Shown piece after piece: positions 2,948 through 43,443 of a DNA stretch of 47,623 nt. The DNA lies in the sequence record PZ445468.1, one strand, 5' to 3'. Source of the DNA: a phage. The first letter of the stretch is position 1, and each line of letters opens with the position of its first letter. The translations under genes and the position numbers were made by a program. Below the pieces are notes generated by a model. It worked only from the letters and a program-made list of their open reading frames with translations. It did no database searches and was not told where the DNA came from.

Positions 2948-3108
2948 TGGCACTATTCTGGTCGTTCTGGATTCCATTTAACTTTATGTTCTGGTGGGCT
3001 ATGGCCGCCGGAGTGAATGAACCAAGCATGCTACACTTCATGATCGGTTCATTTTTCGCGGTGGTAACTGGTATTGTGCCATGTTTACTGTATCAATATT
3101 TCAAATAG
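2947..3108 (+). CDS. small hydrophobic membrane protein (53 aa)
   Basis: short ORF read by eye; W/F-rich hydrophobic sequence; GGAG RBS. Confidence 0.35.
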   Translation: MALFWSFWIPFNFMFWWAMAAGVNEPSMLHFMIGSFFAVVTGIVPCLLYQYFK

Positions 3109-28120: not shown

Positions 28121-31921
<3,801 letters not shown>

Positions 31922-31960: not shown

Positions 31961-34117
31961 ATGGCTACCACACCAACCAATAAACCAATTCCGTCAGAAT
32001 ACCCTCGCGACCTGAAATTTAATGCCGGGAAGATTGACGAGGTAGTGACATCTGATGCGCATTACTACACCGATCGCTTCGGCGTGCGCCGCTGGACAAT
32101 TGCTGGCTTCCAGCACACCGCAGAAGAAGCCATCCGTAACTATGGCTACATCACTATTGACAGCTTCGAAGATGGTGCAACACTGACGCTACCAAATCAG
32201 GTTTTGCGTTATGAGGCTACTGGAGAATATTACCGCTGGGATGGAGATTTCCCAAAAATAGTTCCGGCTGGTTCAACTCCAGATAGCACAGGCGAGGTTA
32301 AATTAGGAGCGTGGGTTAGTGTTGGTGATGCTTCATTGAGAAGTGATTTGGCCCTAACCACAGGCGCAGGTCTAGTTGGTACAACATCCGGCAGGACCGT
32401 ACAGGCAGAGTTTGATTACCGCAAAACTCAAGCGGAAAAAACAGAGATAAACATACTTGACTACCTTCCGGATAACGTGATCGCGGCGCTAAACGATGTT
32501 AATGCATCAATGGCTCTAGGAAGCGTAAGGACATACATCGAACAGGCTTTGGCGGCAGCAACGAGCGAGAATATCGGTACTGGGGTTACTTTACGTTTCC
32601 CGGCTGGGTTCTTTTGGCTTGATTCTACTCTTAACCTTCCTAAAAGGACGCGTATTGTTGGGGTCTACCCAGAAACATACTTTATGGCGCTCCCCAACTT
32701 TACCGGCACTAACGTAATTGCTGGCTCCACGGGACCAGCTATAGTCGCTATTGATAACTCAGGACAAGACCCGTTTTATATTGAAGGTTTCCAGATAAAC
32801 GCAGATGGCTCACAACCGAATGTGGTTGGACTGCACATTGGCGGATGCCGTAATTCCGTCGTCCGCCGAATATCTGTATCGGGGACCTTCGATGCTGCTG
32901 TTGTTATCCACCCTAAAAACGCAACATCTGGAGACGTGGAGAACCTGGAATTAAGCCACGTATGGACATTAGGTGGTGGGCTTGTGCTCAGGACTAATAC
33001 AGATATCGACCGTGGAAATTTAACAGGTCTGTCATTCCGGGATTGTATGTTTTTCAGCACAATCGACAACAACCCTTCATGGGCGACGTCCGGTAACCCA
33101 TCCATCAGATTCTCATGTCATACTGACAGACAGATTTTTTCATGTACATTCGACCGCGTTGGTTGGGGTAGTCGTGCGACATACGCTATTTACTCAGAAA
33201 GTCTTGCAGGAAATAGCGAGGCAGATGTAAAAGGTTTCCGTGATATCCATTTCTCTGATTTCGCCGGAGAATCCCACAACGCTGACGGCTCGCTAACATC
33301 AGACTGTACGTATGCCCTACTTACGAAGATGCGGAATAGCACATTTACTAACATCCAACGCTCTGGCGCCGTGACCCGTGGGGGTATCATTATGGATGGG
33401 TGCGAATATGTGACCTTCAACTCAGTGTCTTTTGCAGATCCCAATATTAGCACTGGAACAACTGCCCCACGGTGCGTATATCAAAACTCTACTAATAGAT
33501 TTAACCGTTTTATCAATTGTGACTTAACAGATGCTACTGGTAGTATGTTTGATTTAGATGGTTGGACCATAGCTAACAGTGTGATGTACTACTTTCAGGG
33601 CCTGTTCTGGGATGACAGTGGGACTAGTATCTGGGAATGTGAACAAATGTCTAGCACTCCTGGCGTTATGTTCGCAAGAAGTACATTAAACCAAAATAAC
33701 GGGTCGGCCTTCCCTCAACAGTCTGGGGTTACAATGCTAACTTCAGGCGACAACCTTCAAGTTACTTTTGCAAGAGACACCACTACTAAAACCTTTACAA
33801 TACCTATTACTACATCTTCTGGTGTATTTAATAACCATGACAGGGTGTATGTGGCATTTAGACATCAGTTCCTTAGCTATGGAACCAATACTGTAGTGAA
33901 AATAGGGATTGGAGGTAAGTATGTTACAATCAGTCCTCAATCGGGAATTGATTATTTTGCGGTGGTTAGTAGAGCACGTTCTTTGGCAACATCATTTGAT
34001 ATCCAAGTCACTTATAGTGGCGCTTCGGGAGATTGCATTATTCTTATTAGAGATTTAATTGTATCAAATAAAATGCCGTGGCTCCCTAACTTCACCAAAG
34101 TCTTACTTTGCGATTAA
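31961..34117 (+). CDS. tailspike / receptor-binding protein
   Basis: 718-aa ORF with beta-helix-like repeats; C-terminal part low GC. Confidence 0.65.
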   Translation: MATTPTNKPIPSEYPRDLKFNAGKIDEVVTSDAHYYTDRFGVRRWTIAGFQHTAEEAIRNYGYITIDSFEDGATLTLPNQVLRYEATGEYYRWDGDFPKIVPAGSTPDSTGEVKLGAWVSVGDASLRSDLALTTGAGLVGTTSGRTVQAEFDYRKTQAEKTEINILDYLPDNVIAALNDVNASMALGSVRTYIEQALAAATSENIGTGVTLRFPAGFFWLDSTLNLPKRTRIVGVYPETYFMALPNFTGTNVIAGSTGPAIVAIDNSGQDPFYIEGFQINADGSQPNVVGLHIGGCRNSVVRRISVSGTFDAAVVIHPKNATSGDVENLELSHVWTLGGGLVLRTNTDIDRGNLTGLSFRDCMFFSTIDNNPSWATSGNPSIRFSCHTDRQIFSCTFDRVGWGSRATYAIYSESLAGNSEADVKGFRDIHFSDFAGESHNADGSLTSDCTYALLTKMRNSTFTNIQRSGAVTRGGIIMDGCEYVTFNSVSFADPNISTGTTAPRCVYQNSTNRFNRFINCDLTDATGSMFDLDGWTIANSVMYYFQGLFWDDSGTSIWECEQMSSTPGVMFARSTLNQNNGSAFPQQSGVTMLTSGDNLQVTFARDTTTKTFTIPITTSSGVFNNHDRVYVAFRHQFLSYGTNTVVKIGIGGKYVTISPQSGIDYFAVVSRARSLATSFDIQVTYSGASGDCIILIRDLIVSNKMPWLPNFTKVLLCD

Positions 34118-34121
34118 AACT

Positions 34122-34147
34122 AAGGCCCCGAAAGGGGCCTTTTCTCT
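34122..34147. terminator. bidirectional rho-independent terminator
   Basis: AAGGCCCCGAAAGGGGCCTTTT between convergent genes. Confidence 0.7.
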
Positions 34148-34162
34148 ATGCTTCTGATATTT

Positions 34163-34666
34163 TCAAAACGGAATGTCGTCGTCGAAGTCCATCGGAGGCT
34201 CATTACCTCCTTGTTGGCTTTGTTGTTTTGGTTGCTGCTGCTGTTGCGGATTTGTTCCCCATCCACCTTGAGGTTGTTGTCCTGATTGCTGGCGTGGTTG
34301 CTGACCAGAATCATCGCGTTTACCACCAAGCATCTGCATAACGCCGCCCATCTGTGGAATGACAATCTCAGTTGTGTATCGGTCCACGCCGTTACTGTCA
34401 GTCCATTTTCGAGTGCGCAGCTGGCCTTCTATGTAAACTTGCGATCCTTTGCGAAGATATTCTGCTGCAACTTCCGCAAGTTTCCCGAATATGACAACAC
34501 GATGCCATTCAGTTTGCTCTTTCTTTTCTCCTGTTTGTTTGTCTTTCCACTGCTCAGATGTTGCAACGGAAAGGTTGGCAATTGCAGAGCCTGATGCTGA
34601 ATATTTAACTTCAGGGTCATTACCGAGAGTGCCGACAATAATTACTTTGTTTACGCCTCGTGCCAT
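34163..34666 (-). CDS. ssb: single-stranded DNA-binding protein
   Basis: OB-fold N-terminus, Gln/Gly-rich linker, acidic C-terminal tail DFDDDIPF. Confidence 0.9.
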
Positions 34667-34669
34667 TTA

Positions 34670-35716
34670 TTAAAATCCTTCAATTGGGGTTGGTTTATGT
34701 TCGGTTTTTTCTTCCTGTGGTTCTGGCTGTTGGGGTTGCGGTTTAGCCAGTTTTGCAGGGTTGAAGTTATCTTGCGGTGTGATTACCACAGGAGATAATT
34801 GCTCATCATTGATGAAAGACTCAATGCGATCATATTCAGTAGCAGAAGCAGCGAGAGAAGGCCAGATTGCACGAATCTTATCTTTCAGGTTATCAGGTAT
34901 TGATTTTGCCTCTTCCTTCAGGCCTTCCATGCCTTTTGCGGCAGAGAGCTGAAGTCGTGAGCGCCATGACTCAAACTCTTCGTCAACTTTAACTCCAGAG
35001 TCCACCCATTTGATGAGTCCGCGACCATGTGCCTCGCCAATGTATCCATGTCGAACGCTTTCACGACCAGACTCAAAGAAGATTGGGCGTAGTTCTTCTG
35101 GTAATTTGGTGAACTCCTGAATTTTTCCTCCATCGTGCATCATCATGCTCACAGTCATTTCGAACATGAAGTCTTTCTCGCACACTGGCTGTAACCCAAG
35201 TGATACAGGCTCCTTCGGGTTTGCGAAATCAGTTTTCTGGCGAGCACGAAGACATACAATGATATGCATATTGCTTTGCAGCATGGCATTCATAAACTTC
35301 TTGTGTTCAGCTTTGGCGCGCTTCCAGTCAGCCATCTTTTTGCCGTTAAGCAACGGCTTTTCAGCAATCTCCGTGCAACTCCCTTCCCCTTCCCATTCGT
35401 GCGAGCCTGAATCAATAACAAGAACCTTAACGCCAGCAGCCTGAAACTCTTCAATGGCCTGACGGTAACGAGCAGGACTGAATGGAGCATACATATCAGC
35501 ATGCAGGAATTTACCATCAAGGATGTTTGAGTACAGGCGACCGCGACCGTTTTCAGTATCAAGGAATCCGATTTCTTCTGGTGAGTCAACCATCCCGCGA
35601 GCAAGCTTAAGTGCGCTATATGTTTTCCCGCTACCAGACTGGCCTGAAATACCGATTACCACACGAGAACCGGAACGCTCTGCTGGTTTTATATTGAGAA
35701 TACCCATTTGCATCAC
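34670..35716 (-). CDS. P-loop ATPase (RecA-like recombination ATPase)
   Basis: Walker A GQSGSGKT. Confidence 0.55.
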   Translation of the reverse strand: MMQMGILNIKPAERSGSRVVIGISGQSGSGKTYSALKLARGMVDSPEEIGFLDTENGRGRLYSNILDGKFLHADMYAPFSPARYRQAIEEFQAAGVKVLVIDSGSHEWEGEGSCTEIAEKPLLNGKKMADWKRAKAEHKKFMNAMLQSNMHIIVCLRARQKTDFANPKEPVSLGLQPVCEKDFMFEMTVSMMMHDGGKIQEFTKLPEELRPIFFESGRESVRHGYIGEAHGRGLIKWVDSGVKVDEEFESWRSRLQLSAAKGMEGLKEEAKSIPDNLKDKIRAIWPSLAASATEYDRIESFINDEQLSPVVITPQDNFNPAKLAKPQPQQPEPQEEKTEHKPTPIEGF

Positions 35717-36700: not shown

Positions 36701-37135
36701 TCAATCCACATCAAAAGGCAAGCCAAAATAGAAAAGTGTGGCTTTTTTTAGTTCATCAAGTCCATAAGCGATGGCGGCATAATGACCAAGCCTACACATC
36801 TCTGTTAGCACATCCGATTGCTCCTTGCTCACTCTGCTTTTACTTTTATCGCGGCGCTTTGACTCAATCATTCCGCAACTGTGATTTACACCCGGAGTCA
36901 TTATTACGTTGTCGCCTATTCCAGTCTTAACTCCCATCTTCTGGCGCTTCAGCACAAACTGCACTCTGCTTGATGTGCCAGTTTCGTTTGGTACATGAAA
37001 CCACAGAACATCAGGGAATCGGTGTTGCATCCATGTGCCGTAACCCATCTGGTCAGTCTCCTCTTTAGGACACTCACCACGATAACCGCTATCAAATACC
37101 CATATACCGCTATCAAGCTGCTTCACTTTGCTCAC
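36701..37135 (-). CDS. VRR-NUC domain nuclease
   Basis: 144-aa ORF with D ... E-x-K pattern (GIGDNVI ... GMIESKR). Confidence 0.45.
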   Translation of the reverse strand: MSKVKQLDSGIWVFDSGYRGECPKEETDQMGYGTWMQHRFPDVLWFHVPNETGTSSRVQFVLKRQKMGVKTGIGDNVIMTPGVNHSCGMIESKRRDKSKSRVSKEQSDVLTEMCRLGHYAAIAYGLDELKKATLFYFGLPFDVD

Positions 37136-39050
37136 CTGTAAAATCTTTTCTGTGGATTATGTCTCGGCCTTTATCATTAATACGATGCGTGATGCGTTTT
37201 GGCGATTTAATCAATCCAGCATACATCATGAATTGTTTTGCGTTCTGGCATTTCAGTATTTTCCCAGCCATTGACTTATCATCAAGGTGAGGAAAGATAG
37301 CCTTTGCCTTAAACATGTTTTTCATGTGAGTTGCGCCGCTATAAGGGTAGAAAACCTCGCTAGCCCATCCTTCTTTTCCGTCACAACGATTAATCCAGTA
37401 GCGATATAAAACCCCCTCTCCATCCTTCGTTAACTGAACCTTGAAATCCATAACGTCAGCCCATTCATTATCCGTATACGCACGCTCATTCAGTGCCGCA
37501 TTAGGGTCGCGCAGAACATGATCGCAATGTCGGCAATAACGCGCAGTAGGGTCATTTTTAGTCCCGCAACCATCATCAAAAATCCGTATTCCATGCTTGT
37601 CGAAACCGCAACGAATGTAGCTGAAAAATTCTTCGCATCGACCATCTGGCGATAGTACATCTTTGCCAATGCAGCGGCGCGCATATGGGCTGTTCATTGT
37701 TCCGCATTTCGGGCACGGAACCTGTTCACCACTGCGCCTTGAACGCTGAGCCTCAGCTTCTTCCAGAATCGGGTCTTCATACAGCTGACCAAGCTCAAAC
37801 ATCGTGCCTGAGAAATCAAGAACCAGATGGTCTTCTTTATGATACCCAGCATCAATTTGCTCCTTCTTCAGCAGGCGCATACCGCGACCAAGCAACTGGA
37901 CAAGGAGAGTTAGCGACATTATTTTCCTGAGGATTACGCTTACATCCCATAGCGGAATGTTTACTCCGGTCGTCAGCGCGGCTATCTGGAATGTGTATTT
38001 TATTTTGCCAGTGTACGCATCCTTTAGAGCCTTACGTCTGGCTTTTTGCCCCATATCTTCGGTGACAATAGCGTAGCTACCTTCTGGCAGATATTTAGCA
38101 GCTTCTAAACAATGCTTCTTGCCTGCGCAGGTAATTAACACTCCATTTCTATCTTTTGTAAGCTCCATCACTTTGAGCATGATTTTCTGTGTGAGAGTAC
38201 CTTGCTCAAGGATTTCTTCCTGCATCTGCTTAAGTTGTTCGGCAGTGAAGTCCTGCGTTCCGTCGATATCAGATCCACGGAATGCTGAAAGGTCGTAATG
38301 CAAATCATCAACATCATGAAGGCCAAAGATTGTTGGAACAACAAATCCGCGATCTACCATGTACTTTGTGTCAATGTTTATTATTTCATTCTTCCAGTAC
38401 GCACCTTTCATTGATTCAGTGCCACGGAATGGGCTTCCGGTGAATCCAATTGTTATCATTTCATGACCATGTTTTGCCTTGCATCTCCTGTTAAGTTCCG
38501 TAAGTATTACACCATATTGTGTTGTTGGATTCTCACTAATAATGTCCTGCCACGGAACTTGGTGCCCTTCATCGCACAGGCAAAATCTGGGGGCAAAATC
38601 ACTCAATCCACCTTTCTTAACGTCACCACTTGATTCATCTTTTTTATCAAAAAGTGCGTTAACGATTGTTCCTTCAGTTCCGCATATAATAGGGTATGCT
38701 GTACTTTTCCTGCCAAGAGATGCGCTATAAAGAGAATTTTTTACACCGCACTCCCACATCATTTCAGCATTCTGCTCTGCTATTTCCCCCTGCCTTGAAA
38801 TAACAAGGCCATCCCACCCCATATCCTGAAATCTACTGCAAAGCATTGAAATTATCACGGTCTTTCCTGATGAAACCGACGCTGTAACATAGCTTGGTTC
38901 AGGTTTCTTGCCAAAATTACGAATAACCTCAGCGCACTTTGCGTAAACAAGCCATTGGTAATCATATGGCTCTATGGAGCCTAATTTTATTGATTGCTTT
39001 AACTTCTCAATATTAATCTCTGAAATCATTTTGTCTATTTTGTTCATCAC
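37113..39050 (-). CDS. DExH-box superfamily II helicase
   Basis: Walker A SSGKT, DEGH motif II, C-terminal Cys4 zinc-finger pairs. Confidence 0.75.
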   Translation of the reverse strand: MMNKIDKMISEINIEKLKQSIKLGSIEPYDYQWLVYAKCAEVIRNFGKKPEPSYVTASVSSGKTVIISMLCSRFQDMGWDGLVISRQGEIAEQNAEMMWECGVKNSLYSASLGRKSTAYPIICGTEGTIVNALFDKKDESSGDVKKGGLSDFAPRFCLCDEGHQVPWQDIISENPTTQYGVILTELNRRCKAKHGHEMITIGFTGSPFRGTESMKGAYWKNEIINIDTKYMVDRGFVVPTIFGLHDVDDLHYDLSAFRGSDIDGTQDFTAEQLKQMQEEILEQGTLTQKIMLKVMELTKDRNGVLITCAGKKHCLEAAKYLPEGSYAIVTEDMGQKARRKALKDAYTGKIKYTFQIAALTTGVNIPLWDVSVILRKIMSLTLLVQLLGRGMRLLKKEQIDAGYHKEDHLVLDFSGTMFELGQLYEDPILEEAEAQRSRRSGEQVPCPKCGTMNSPYARRCIGKDVLSPDGRCEEFFSYIRCGFDKHGIRIFDDGCGTKNDPTARYCRHCDHVLRDPNAALNERAYTDNEWADVMDFKVQLTKDGEGVLYRYWINRCDGKEGWASEVFYPYSGATHMKNMFKAKAIFPHLDDKSMAGKILKCQNAKQFMMYAGLIKSPKRITHRINDKGRDIIHRKDFTGEQSEAA

Positions 39051-42720: not shown

Positions 42721-42937
42721 CGAAATATGAGCACGTTCTGAATTTCATCCCAAAATCCTCACCAACCCTTCCGAGACACGCGCGAAATCTTTCAACAGAC
42801 ATCACTTTATCTGCAATATCCTCATAAGAAATCGAATTAACCTGACCAACATCCATATGTTTTGCAACGCGATACACGAATTCCATCTTTGAACCATCAC
42901 GGTACATTTTGTTTCTCATAGACACCTCCATCCGCAT
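42689..42937 (-). CDS. hypothetical protein (82 aa)
   Basis: ORF. Confidence 0.4.
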   Translation of the reverse strand: MRMEVSMRNKMYRDGSKMEFVYRVAKHMDVGQVNSISYEDIADKVMSVERFRACLGRVGEDFGMKFRTCSYFDEVLHIKRVG

Positions 42938-43084
42938 TCCAACAGGAACTATAGATAAAAAATAAAATTAGCGCAACACAAAACAGGTCTAACCAGCAAT
43001 AATAGCTACCACACTTAACAACTGGTCAGACCACCATCTCGTATCTGATATATGTGGATGGTGCACGTCGTTCAATTTGTGCTC

Positions 43085-43443
43085 GATTTTTACCTAATTT
43101 ACCGTATATTTATTAGTCAGTTTTTTGCATAACCAATTGATTTATATGATTTTACCTGTTTTACCGGAAATCTAATGAGTATTTTCATCATTGAGAGTAG
43201 TAGTATATTAATTGGTCTAATTTTTAAAGAACTCTAATAAAATCAATATATTAATATAAGAAAGTAACTTACTTACTTATATAGGATTTACCGGGTAAAA
43301 CCGGTAACTCCTCCGCAGTCCGCGTCATTACTGGATTGATTTTTACCACCTGTAGGTAAATACAGTAGTTTTTAAGTCAGGATTGTTTTGTAAGATGTTG
43401 ATTACCGGTACTTTATTTGAAAAACCGGGATTTACCGGGTTTT
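43085..43443. repeat. iteron array (TTTACC / ACCGG core), putative origin
   Basis: at least 10 direct and inverted copies of GATTT(T)ACC(G/T), including palindromes TTACCGG-N6-CCGGTAA and TACCGGTA. Confidence 0.55.

Follow-up and report, generated by a model that had tools for sequence, protein, structure and literature searches.

A GC break inside the Bas81 tailspike gene is probably an old feature of an O16 receptor-binding cassette exchanged whole

A modular O16 tailspike

Among phages with tailspikes of the P22, Sf6 and HK620 type, exchange of the receptor-binding part takes place at a linker. These proteins consist of an N-terminal head- or tail-binding module, a short linker and a beta-helix module for binding and cleaving O-antigen, as does the tailspike of phage Bas81, which matches them in Foldseek with E values of 1e-5 to 1e-7 at a sequence identity of about 12%, but has a different anchor and a C-terminal domain that is a separate sandwich resembling carbohydrate-binding modules (CBMs). 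The tailspikes CBA120 TSP1-4 and those of the G7C gp66 type (Tail_spike_N, PF18668) have no detectable sequence similarity to Bas81 in the beta-helix or C-terminus, and they form a branched multi-tailspike complex, whereas Bas81 has one tailspike on a siphovirus tail; the CBA120 tailspikes do share with Bas81 a C-terminal CBM-like beta-sandwich (jelly roll), in Bas81 by predicted fold. The Peptidase_S74 chaperones of endosialidases and tail fibres occupy the same extreme C-terminal position on a trimeric fibre or spike, but the predicted Bas81 fold differs.

The closest described proteins are the O16 tailspikes of the expanded BASEL collection (Humolli et al. 2025, PLoS Biol, PMC11990801), found in the Kagunavirus phages Bas74-76, the Gamaleyavirus Bas96 and others; Bas81_0076 belongs to this set, and our sequence comparisons confirm the relationships. 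According to the published text available to us, Bas81 is a small siphovirus of the Skatevirus cluster, infection by Bas77-81 depends on the O16 O-antigen, with Bas81 needing restored O16 on E. coli K-12, and homologous pectin-lyase-like tailspikes on variable anchors have already been described for the collection (PMC11990801). The same portions of that text make no mention of an intragenic GC break, a fine mosaic, crossover zones at linker and terminator, or a CBM-like C-terminal fold. As far as this source extends, the phage, the protein and modular tailspike exchange are already published, and the analysis below makes small additions: the break in GC, the fine-scale mosaic and the zones of crossover.

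The window, that is, the whole stretch of DNA analysed, is the complete Bas81 genome (PQ850630.1, 47,623 bp) rotated by 1,048 bases. By megablast, the tailspike open reading frame matches positions 33009-35165 of PQ850630.1 (Escherichia phage TanjaMuster_Bas81) over its full length at 99.9% identity. A gene for a J-like tail protein lies directly upstream, and an ssb gene converges on the tailspike gene from the other side (Table 1).

Table 1. Features of the Bas81 tailspike gene and its 3' border, in window positions
Feature	Position	Strand	Details
Tailspike gene Bas81_0076	31961-34117	+	718 aa ORF; labelled 'tail fiber protein' in PQ850630.1
N-terminal virion-anchor module, Skatevirus type (aa 1-135)	31961-32365	+	Tail_spike_N at aa 66-123, PF18668 E=1.1e-18
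Conserved linker GAGLVGTTSGRTVQAEFD (aa ~134-153), putative 5' crossover zone of the receptor-binding cassette	32360-32420	+	From homology limits
Predicted helical cap and right-handed beta-helix (aa ~155-490)	32420-33430	+	GC 47.7%, GC3 0.45; AlphaFold2 (AF2), Foldseek
Interdomain stretch (aa 492-556)	33434-33628	+	pLDDT <50 in both AF2 models, unplaced in the monomer; low-GC tract starts here
Predicted C-terminal beta-sandwich (jelly-roll, carbohydrate-binding-module-like; aa 557-708)	33629-34084	+	Lowest-GC part: 39.8%, GC3 0.32
Maximum-likelihood GC change point	33477 (aa 506)	.	2-log-unit support 33378-33787; 48.4% before, 39.0% after
Three positions that differ from the GenBank record by one base	33168, 33596, 33948	+	All non-synonymous: A403G, K546Q, T663I
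Bidirectional intrinsic terminator AAGGCCCCGAAAGGGGCCTT plus T run, between convergent tailspike and ssb genes; putative 3' crossover zone	34122-34141	.	Both-strand scan

Sequence families identify the anchor: aa 1-152 match PDB 9occ_G ('putative tail protein gp13') with E=4.5e-70, and 41 PHROG families of tail fibres or tailspikes match the anchor. At E<=0.01, PF18668 is the only Pfam family detected in the tailspike protein, neither Pfam nor PHROGs holds a family for the beta-helix or the C-terminus, and a PDB sequence search reaches the anchor only. We modelled the protein with AF2 from nine homologues, at moderate confidence (mean pLDDT 65; range 61-65 across models). The beta-helix has pLDDT 75-92 over aa 160-490, with regular short strands at aa 210-487, and the anchor (aa 1-159) is poorly resolved. 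A Foldseek search of the PDB with the whole model retrieved CBA120 TSP3/TSP4, K2-2 TSP, Depo32, Sf6 and HK620, with E values down to 6e-13; the top PDB matches (E 6e-13 to 1e-7) are all tailspikes or depolymerases. The structural neighbours of the C-terminal model are CBMs, at 6-16% sequence identity, and the predicted domain is a CBM-like beta-sandwich, a likeness by fold alone.

The preliminary description had taken the C-terminal ~200 aa for a receptor-binding or chaperone domain. The second option, an intramolecular chaperone of the Peptidase_S74 kind, was rejected, there being no Pfam match, a predicted beta-sandwich with CBM neighbours and nothing to suggest a cleavage module. Judged by its fold, its place among the genes and the published phenotype, the protein is a modular tailspike of the standard design: a Tail_spike_N-type anchor, then a beta-helix, then a CBM-like sandwich at the C-terminus. 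The available literature and the predicted fold together indicate that it binds the O16 O-antigen as the only receptor-binding protein of the phage, and that it probably also cleaves it.

Size and make-up of the GC break

Exact counts confirm that GC content drops at the end of the tailspike gene: 33480-34117 has 39.2% GC, compared with 48.3% for 31961-33479 and 46.4% for the whole window. Uniform GC, the result that the preliminary description had named as fatal to its reading, was not seen. That description had the direction of the contrast right and overstated its size. The 60-nt blocks that it quoted have 56.7% (32041), 31.7% (33481) and 30.0% (33781) GC, but such blocks overlap in range (37 to 62% upstream, 33 to 53% downstream), and the average difference is about 9 points, not about 20. 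The change point itself is sharp, at 33477, and none of 500 codon-order shuffles reached its likelihood ratio. No other in-frame window of 212 codons in the annotated long genes (406 windows in all) is as low in GC, GC3 or GC1. Among all 638-nt windows, coding or not, the tract ranks in the lowest 3.1%, and the AT-rich non-coding segment 42920-43416 (33.2% GC) lies lower than the tailspike end. All three codon positions change across the break, GC1/GC2/GC3 going from 0.52/0.49/0.44 upstream to 0.39/0.44/0.34 downstream.

The break falls at a domain boundary, as the beta-helix runs to about aa 490 and GC content changes at aa 506; within the low-GC stretch lie the codons for the last beta-helix turns, the interdomain stretch and the predicted CBM-like sandwich. 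Promoter-like sites within it are at chance level (3, with 2.3 expected), and a scan of both strands placed no terminator inside the tract, the single one found lying after the stop codon. The tract also contains an antisense open reading frame of 65 aa with a TTG start (33743-33940).

We reasoned that part of the drop might simply follow from the amino acids encoded, and calculated the GC content to be expected if the amino-acid sequence were encoded with the codon usage of the remaining Bas81 genes. Between body and C-terminus, expected GC falls from 48.2% to 45.3%, while observed GC falls from 47.7% to 39.3%. Amino-acid composition hence predicts 2.9 of the 8.4 points, or about one third, and AT-rich synonymous codons provide about two thirds. 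Ala, Glu, Gly and Arg are less frequent in the C-terminus and Gln, Thr, Ser, Phe, Tyr and Met are more frequent, and C-terminal GC1 falls in every member of the family, including homologues of 37-41% identity; both observations fit a drop that is a mere by-product of beta-sandwich composition, with no compositional history behind it. As a full explanation this is refuted by the size of the predicted share and by aa 564-718, where observed GC is 4.6 SD below the amino-acid expectation, the most extreme value in the genome, and we regard it as highly improbable. The codon-usage check, which had been suggested along with the original observation, shows the break to be mainly synonymous, with a GC3 of 0.34 against 0.48 expected from genome codon usage. 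A synonymous AT excess is already present in aa 481-563 (z=-2.4). Because the break is mainly a synonymous-codon signal, we conclude that the distal ~240 codons have a different compositional history. A similar bias over codons 1-250 of the gene at 37113-39047 (z=-4.2) indicates that mosaic composition is common in the Bas81 genome.

Relatives and borders of the receptor-binding cassette

If the C-terminus had been acquired separately, it could be expected to have relatives of its own, as the preliminary description had proposed. However, tblastn searches of 50,697 phage records with aa 150-506 and with aa 507-718 gave the same 11 records: Bas81, Bas96, and the Kagunavirus phages Bas74, Bas75, Bas76, NTEC3 (two records), SCS92, 590B, KMB35 and XY2. 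Identity across these records is 91-99% for the body and 79-98% for the C-terminus. Distant homologues (P0004-6, P0011 and P0012; 37-42% identity) align over both parts. An exhaustive phmmer search of 1.84 billion representative proteins with aa 481-718 returned four matches, of which three are the C-termini of tailspike-like proteins of 726-781 aa (P0002, P0012 and P0011) that share the body too, and the fourth (P0013, 1405 aa) is marginal. In IMG/VR, no relatives were found with the C-terminus, the body or a C-terminal alignment as query; the GTDB genomes yielded no relatives of the tailspike, and the JGI metagenomes yielded one locus, encoding the same protein as P0012. A word-indexed search with the C-terminus alone came back empty, as it would for an orphan domain. 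We rejected this candidate: the same database holds full-length homologues of 86-93% identity, so the empty search is a false negative. Since both parts share their relatives, an outcome that the preliminary description had itself listed as speaking against it, recent separate acquisition of the C-terminus fails.

The borders of the shared segment were mapped with 30-nt identity profiles against Bas78 and Bas96 and, on the 3' side, with an alignment that takes in the common terminator. The Skatevirus Bas78 is 74-96% identical to Bas81 at the nucleotide level up to about 32420, has no homology over the remainder of the gene, and is similar again at the stop codon and terminator. For the podovirus Bas96 the profile rises from background to 86-100% at about 32360 and identity stops inside the terminator stem, at about 34129. 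The linker motif at the 5' border also occurs in proteins with other anchors or receptor-binding parts (P0001-3, P0007 and P0009). The terminator at the 3' border is kept in Bas76, the P0001 contig, Bas82 and Bas78, and is common to Skatevirus, Kagunavirus and Nonanavirus phages. In Bas82, the stop codon of the phage's own tailspike gene is directly followed by 81 nt left over from the 3' end of a Kagunavirus-type tailspike gene, a footprint that cassette replacement left at this junction. Between the two borders, the cassette (about 32420-34112) shares 98.6% identity with that of the N4-like podovirus Bas96 and about 82% with the tailspikes of Kagunavirus phages.

These homology limits bear directly on the proposal that the C-terminal ~200 aa alone were recently grafted from a lower-GC donor, with a junction at about 33480. 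Relative to the kin of Bas81, the replaced segment is the whole receptor-binding part, about 32420-34112. Within it, max-chi-square breakpoints against Bas81 fall at 32870 (Bas96), 33088 (Bas76), 33310 (P0001) and 33574 (KMB35). A single clean breakpoint was rejected, and since the four pairwise positions differ, the tailspike gene is a multi-event mosaic. The mapped breakpoints taken together (32360-32420, 32870, 33088, 33310, 33574 and 34129) do not converge on the GC break at 33477; the only one inside the support interval of the change point is that of KMB35. Bas81 and Bas96 differ with a dS of 0.095 over aa 161-373, and from aa 374 on dS is about 0; their latest shared stretch runs from about 32870-32930 to 34128, with its start over 500 nt ahead of the GC break. 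In the P0001 Kagunavirus contig, the 5' part resembles Bas76 and the 3' part resembles Bas81.

A separate graft does gain some support from the sharp and significant change point, from the mostly synonymous nature of the signal, from the KMB35 breakpoint, and from the GC3 of the tract (0.34-0.35), which resembles the codon usage of the N4-like Bas96 (GC3 0.39). Against it, body and C-terminus share relatives at every depth, the same break is present in all close homologues, anciently diverged alleles included, the near-identity of Bas81 and Bas96 starts at about 32930 rather than 33480, and the phage collection, IMG/VR, the GTDB genomes and the JGI metagenomes yielded no lower-GC donor. Bas96 itself was considered as the lower-GC donor and rejected; its GC3 fits, but 0 of 380 Bas96 windows are as low in total GC, the beta-helix part looks just as foreign there, and, in the published account as available to us, Bas96 differs from its relative G7C precisely in the tailspikes. 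There is thus very little to be said for a recent graft of the C-terminus.

Age and origin of the break

We asked whether the break is shared by alleles that diverged long ago. In the close homologues Bas96, Bas74, Bas76, KMB35, 590B, NTEC3 and P0001, the last ~212-240 codons have 39-43% GC and the body has 47.5-49%. We distinguished three allele lineages, namely type A (Bas81, Bas96 and P0001), type B (Bas74, Bas76 and relatives) and KMB35; in all three, a synonymous AT excess (z=-2.3 to -4.6) is found in aa 481-563 and aa 564-718, with values of about 0 upstream. Between Bas81 and Bas76, dS is 0.22 for aa 161-373, whereas aa 374-700 have reached synonymous saturation (pS 0.72-0.82); the pair Bas76 and KMB35 is likewise saturated over aa 564-700. 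The low-GC C-terminus is therefore present even in synonymously saturated alleles, which argues that the feature is old and leaves no room for the recent acquisition suggested at the outset. By these sequence comparisons, the break appears to have been inherited within the cassette, as is ordinary for phage tailspikes, and is not the scar of a recent graft.

We consider it likely that an O16 tailspike cassette is exchanged whole, that the low-GC tract makes up its distal module, and that the break is an old compositional legacy of that module. The cassette (aa ~135-718) would be exchanged between phages as one unit by homologous recombination, with the 5' crossover in the conserved linker at 32360-32420 and the 3' crossover at the stop codon and terminator, at about 34113-34141. 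Bas81 has a Skatevirus anchor fused to the cassette, and the GC break, which sits inside the cassette and moves along with it, has in all probability no function of its own. About one third of the drop would reflect the lower content of Ala, Glu, Gly and Arg, a GC1 drop that is family-wide. The other two thirds would most likely have arisen as the fastest-evolving module diversified in, or repeatedly passed through, lower-GC phage pools, and AT-biased mutation under weaker constraint would add to the AT-rich synonymous usage. The distal sandwich is indeed the fastest-evolving part (dN 0.21 for aa 564-700, compared with 0.07 for aa 374-563), and this high dN fits weaker constraint under AT-biased mutation. 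Bas96 exemplifies a lower-GC pool: its long genes have a GC3 of 0.39, with 0.349 or less in 25% of windows of 238 codons. The distant homologue P0012/L018, with 37% GC throughout, likewise points to such pools for this family. In Kagunavirus genomes (~50% GC), the cassette has a GC3 of 0.44, compared with 0.52-0.64 in flanking genes, which suggests that its stay in any one genome is too short for it to equilibrate.

Besides the absence of the synonymous bias from P0004 and P0005 and a raw GC3 drop that falls short of significance in type B alleles (see below), one further consideration weighs against an old legacy. If the alleles reached saturation inside Kagunavirus genomes of ~50% GC, the signature should have faded; its persistence hence requires either continued circulation in lower-GC, largely unsampled phages or a local mutational or selective bias. 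On the latter view, it would be selection or a local process, and not history, that keeps GC low. AT-ending or rare codons might lower the rate of translation during folding and trimerisation of the C-terminal domain, or GC-biased repair might act in the often-recombining 5' half, leaving the divergent 3' half to AT-biased mutation. Consistent with such a process, three synonymously saturated lineages keep an AT-rich bias confined to aa 481-718, and the 5' half has been homogenised among phages (dS 0.1-0.2), whereas the 3' half has not. However, P0004 and P0005, two distant homologues, show no synonymous AT bias, and P0012/L018 has a uniform 37% GC with no break. The effect is also modest in type B alleles, where the z-scores corrected for codon usage are significant but the raw drop in GC3 is not (Fisher p=0.12-0.26, compared with p=0.015 in type A), and the gene at 37113-39047 has a similar bias. 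We therefore judge maintenance by selection or a local process to be unlikely, and slightly less likely still in the specific form that codon choice at codons 481-718 is selected (for example, for slow translation that aids folding or trimerisation) or that recombination-associated GC-biased repair acts in the 5' half. Legacy plus drift remains the most likely account, codon selection and recombination-linked GC bias being minority options. Should either of the latter be true, phage tailspikes would offer a tractable case of position-specific codon constraint.

Beyond correct annotation, the result matters little. It shows that phage receptor-binding genes can have a GC break without a recent junction at that place, and so counsels caution in inferring recombination from composition only. 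For tailspike engineering, practical swap points would be at aa ~134-153 and at the stop codon and terminator, keeping the C-terminal sandwich together with its beta-helix; in nature, the cassette appears to move whole between siphoviruses and a podovirus.

The 3′ border of the cassette

The tailspike gene is separated from ssb by a bidirectional terminator hairpin (see table). The hairpin sequence is nearly base-for-base the same in the Skateviruses Bas81, the phage described here, and Bas78, in the Kagunaviruses Bas76 and the contig encoding the P0001 tailspike, and in the Nonanavirus Bas82, although the genes that flank it differ. The hairpin probably serves as a 3′ homology arm in exchange of the tailspike. 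We also detected an unannotated tailspike remnant of 81 nt in Bas82, which codes for the final 27 aa of a Kagunavirus-type tailspike for O16, the O-antigen type on which Bas81 depends for infection. Bas82 has a different tailspike of its own, and the remnant lies between the stop codon of that gene, which it follows directly, and the shared terminator. We conclude that the remnant is a footprint of cassette replacement.

Coordinates of features in the window and in related phages
Feature	Sequence	Position	Strand	Remarks
Bidirectional terminator hairpin	window	34122-34141		between tailspike and ssb genes
Tailspike remnant	Bas82 (L016, PQ850612.1)	3001-3081 (record 30586-30666)		81 nt, unannotated
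Beta-helix patch	window	32764-32869		106 nt
P0001 tailspike gene	L009	3001-5181		ENA ERZ24991165 NODE_48, Kagunavirus-like contig
Hypothetical gene	window	37113-39047	-	645 aa
Non-coding gap	window	42920-43416		~500 bp
Bas96 tail protein with shared cassette	L017	2986-5922		

Variation within tailspike alleles

Between Bas81 and the podovirus Bas96, 11 of the 24 differences in the cassette are clustered within a single beta-helix patch, which is a micro-mosaic in a cassette that is otherwise near-identical in the two phages. The P0001 tailspike is itself a recombinant: its 5′ part is Bas76-like and its 3′ part is Bas81/Bas96-like, with 95-99% nucleotide identity from approximately position 33320 (window coordinates) and a divergent patch at 33200-33320.

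The window differs from its GenBank counterpart, PQ850630.1, at only four bases (23945, 33168, 33596 and 33948). The tailspike accounts for 4.5% of the genome, yet it holds three of these differences, all non-synonymous (A403G, K546Q and T663I); hence, selection acting on the receptor-binding protein, or use of another stock, seems a better explanation than random error. Each of the replaced residues is conserved in Bas96 and P0001. A403 is present in all close tailspike homologues; positions 546 and 663 are variable among Kagunavirus alleles.

Search sensitivity and other compositional features

A word-indexed protein search with the 212-aa tailspike C-terminus alone as the query returned no matches. 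Since the same database contains full-length homologues with 82-95% identity across the last 238 aa of the tailspike, negative results from such searches with short queries call for caution.

The tailspike is not the only gene with an intragenic compositional gradient: GC content climbs from 40% to 49% along the hypothetical gene, and the AT-rich synonymous bias of its first ~250 codons (z = -4.2, relative to the GC content expected from amino-acid sequence and genome codon usage) comes close in strength to the bias at the tailspike C-terminus. GC content reaches its genome-wide minimum (33.2%) in the non-coding gap. The genes on either side are divergently oriented, and the gap may represent an early promoter region or an origin. 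In the Bas96 tail protein, a second low-GC stretch (codons 261-395; 41.2% GC, GC3 0.30) lies immediately upstream of the cassette junction.
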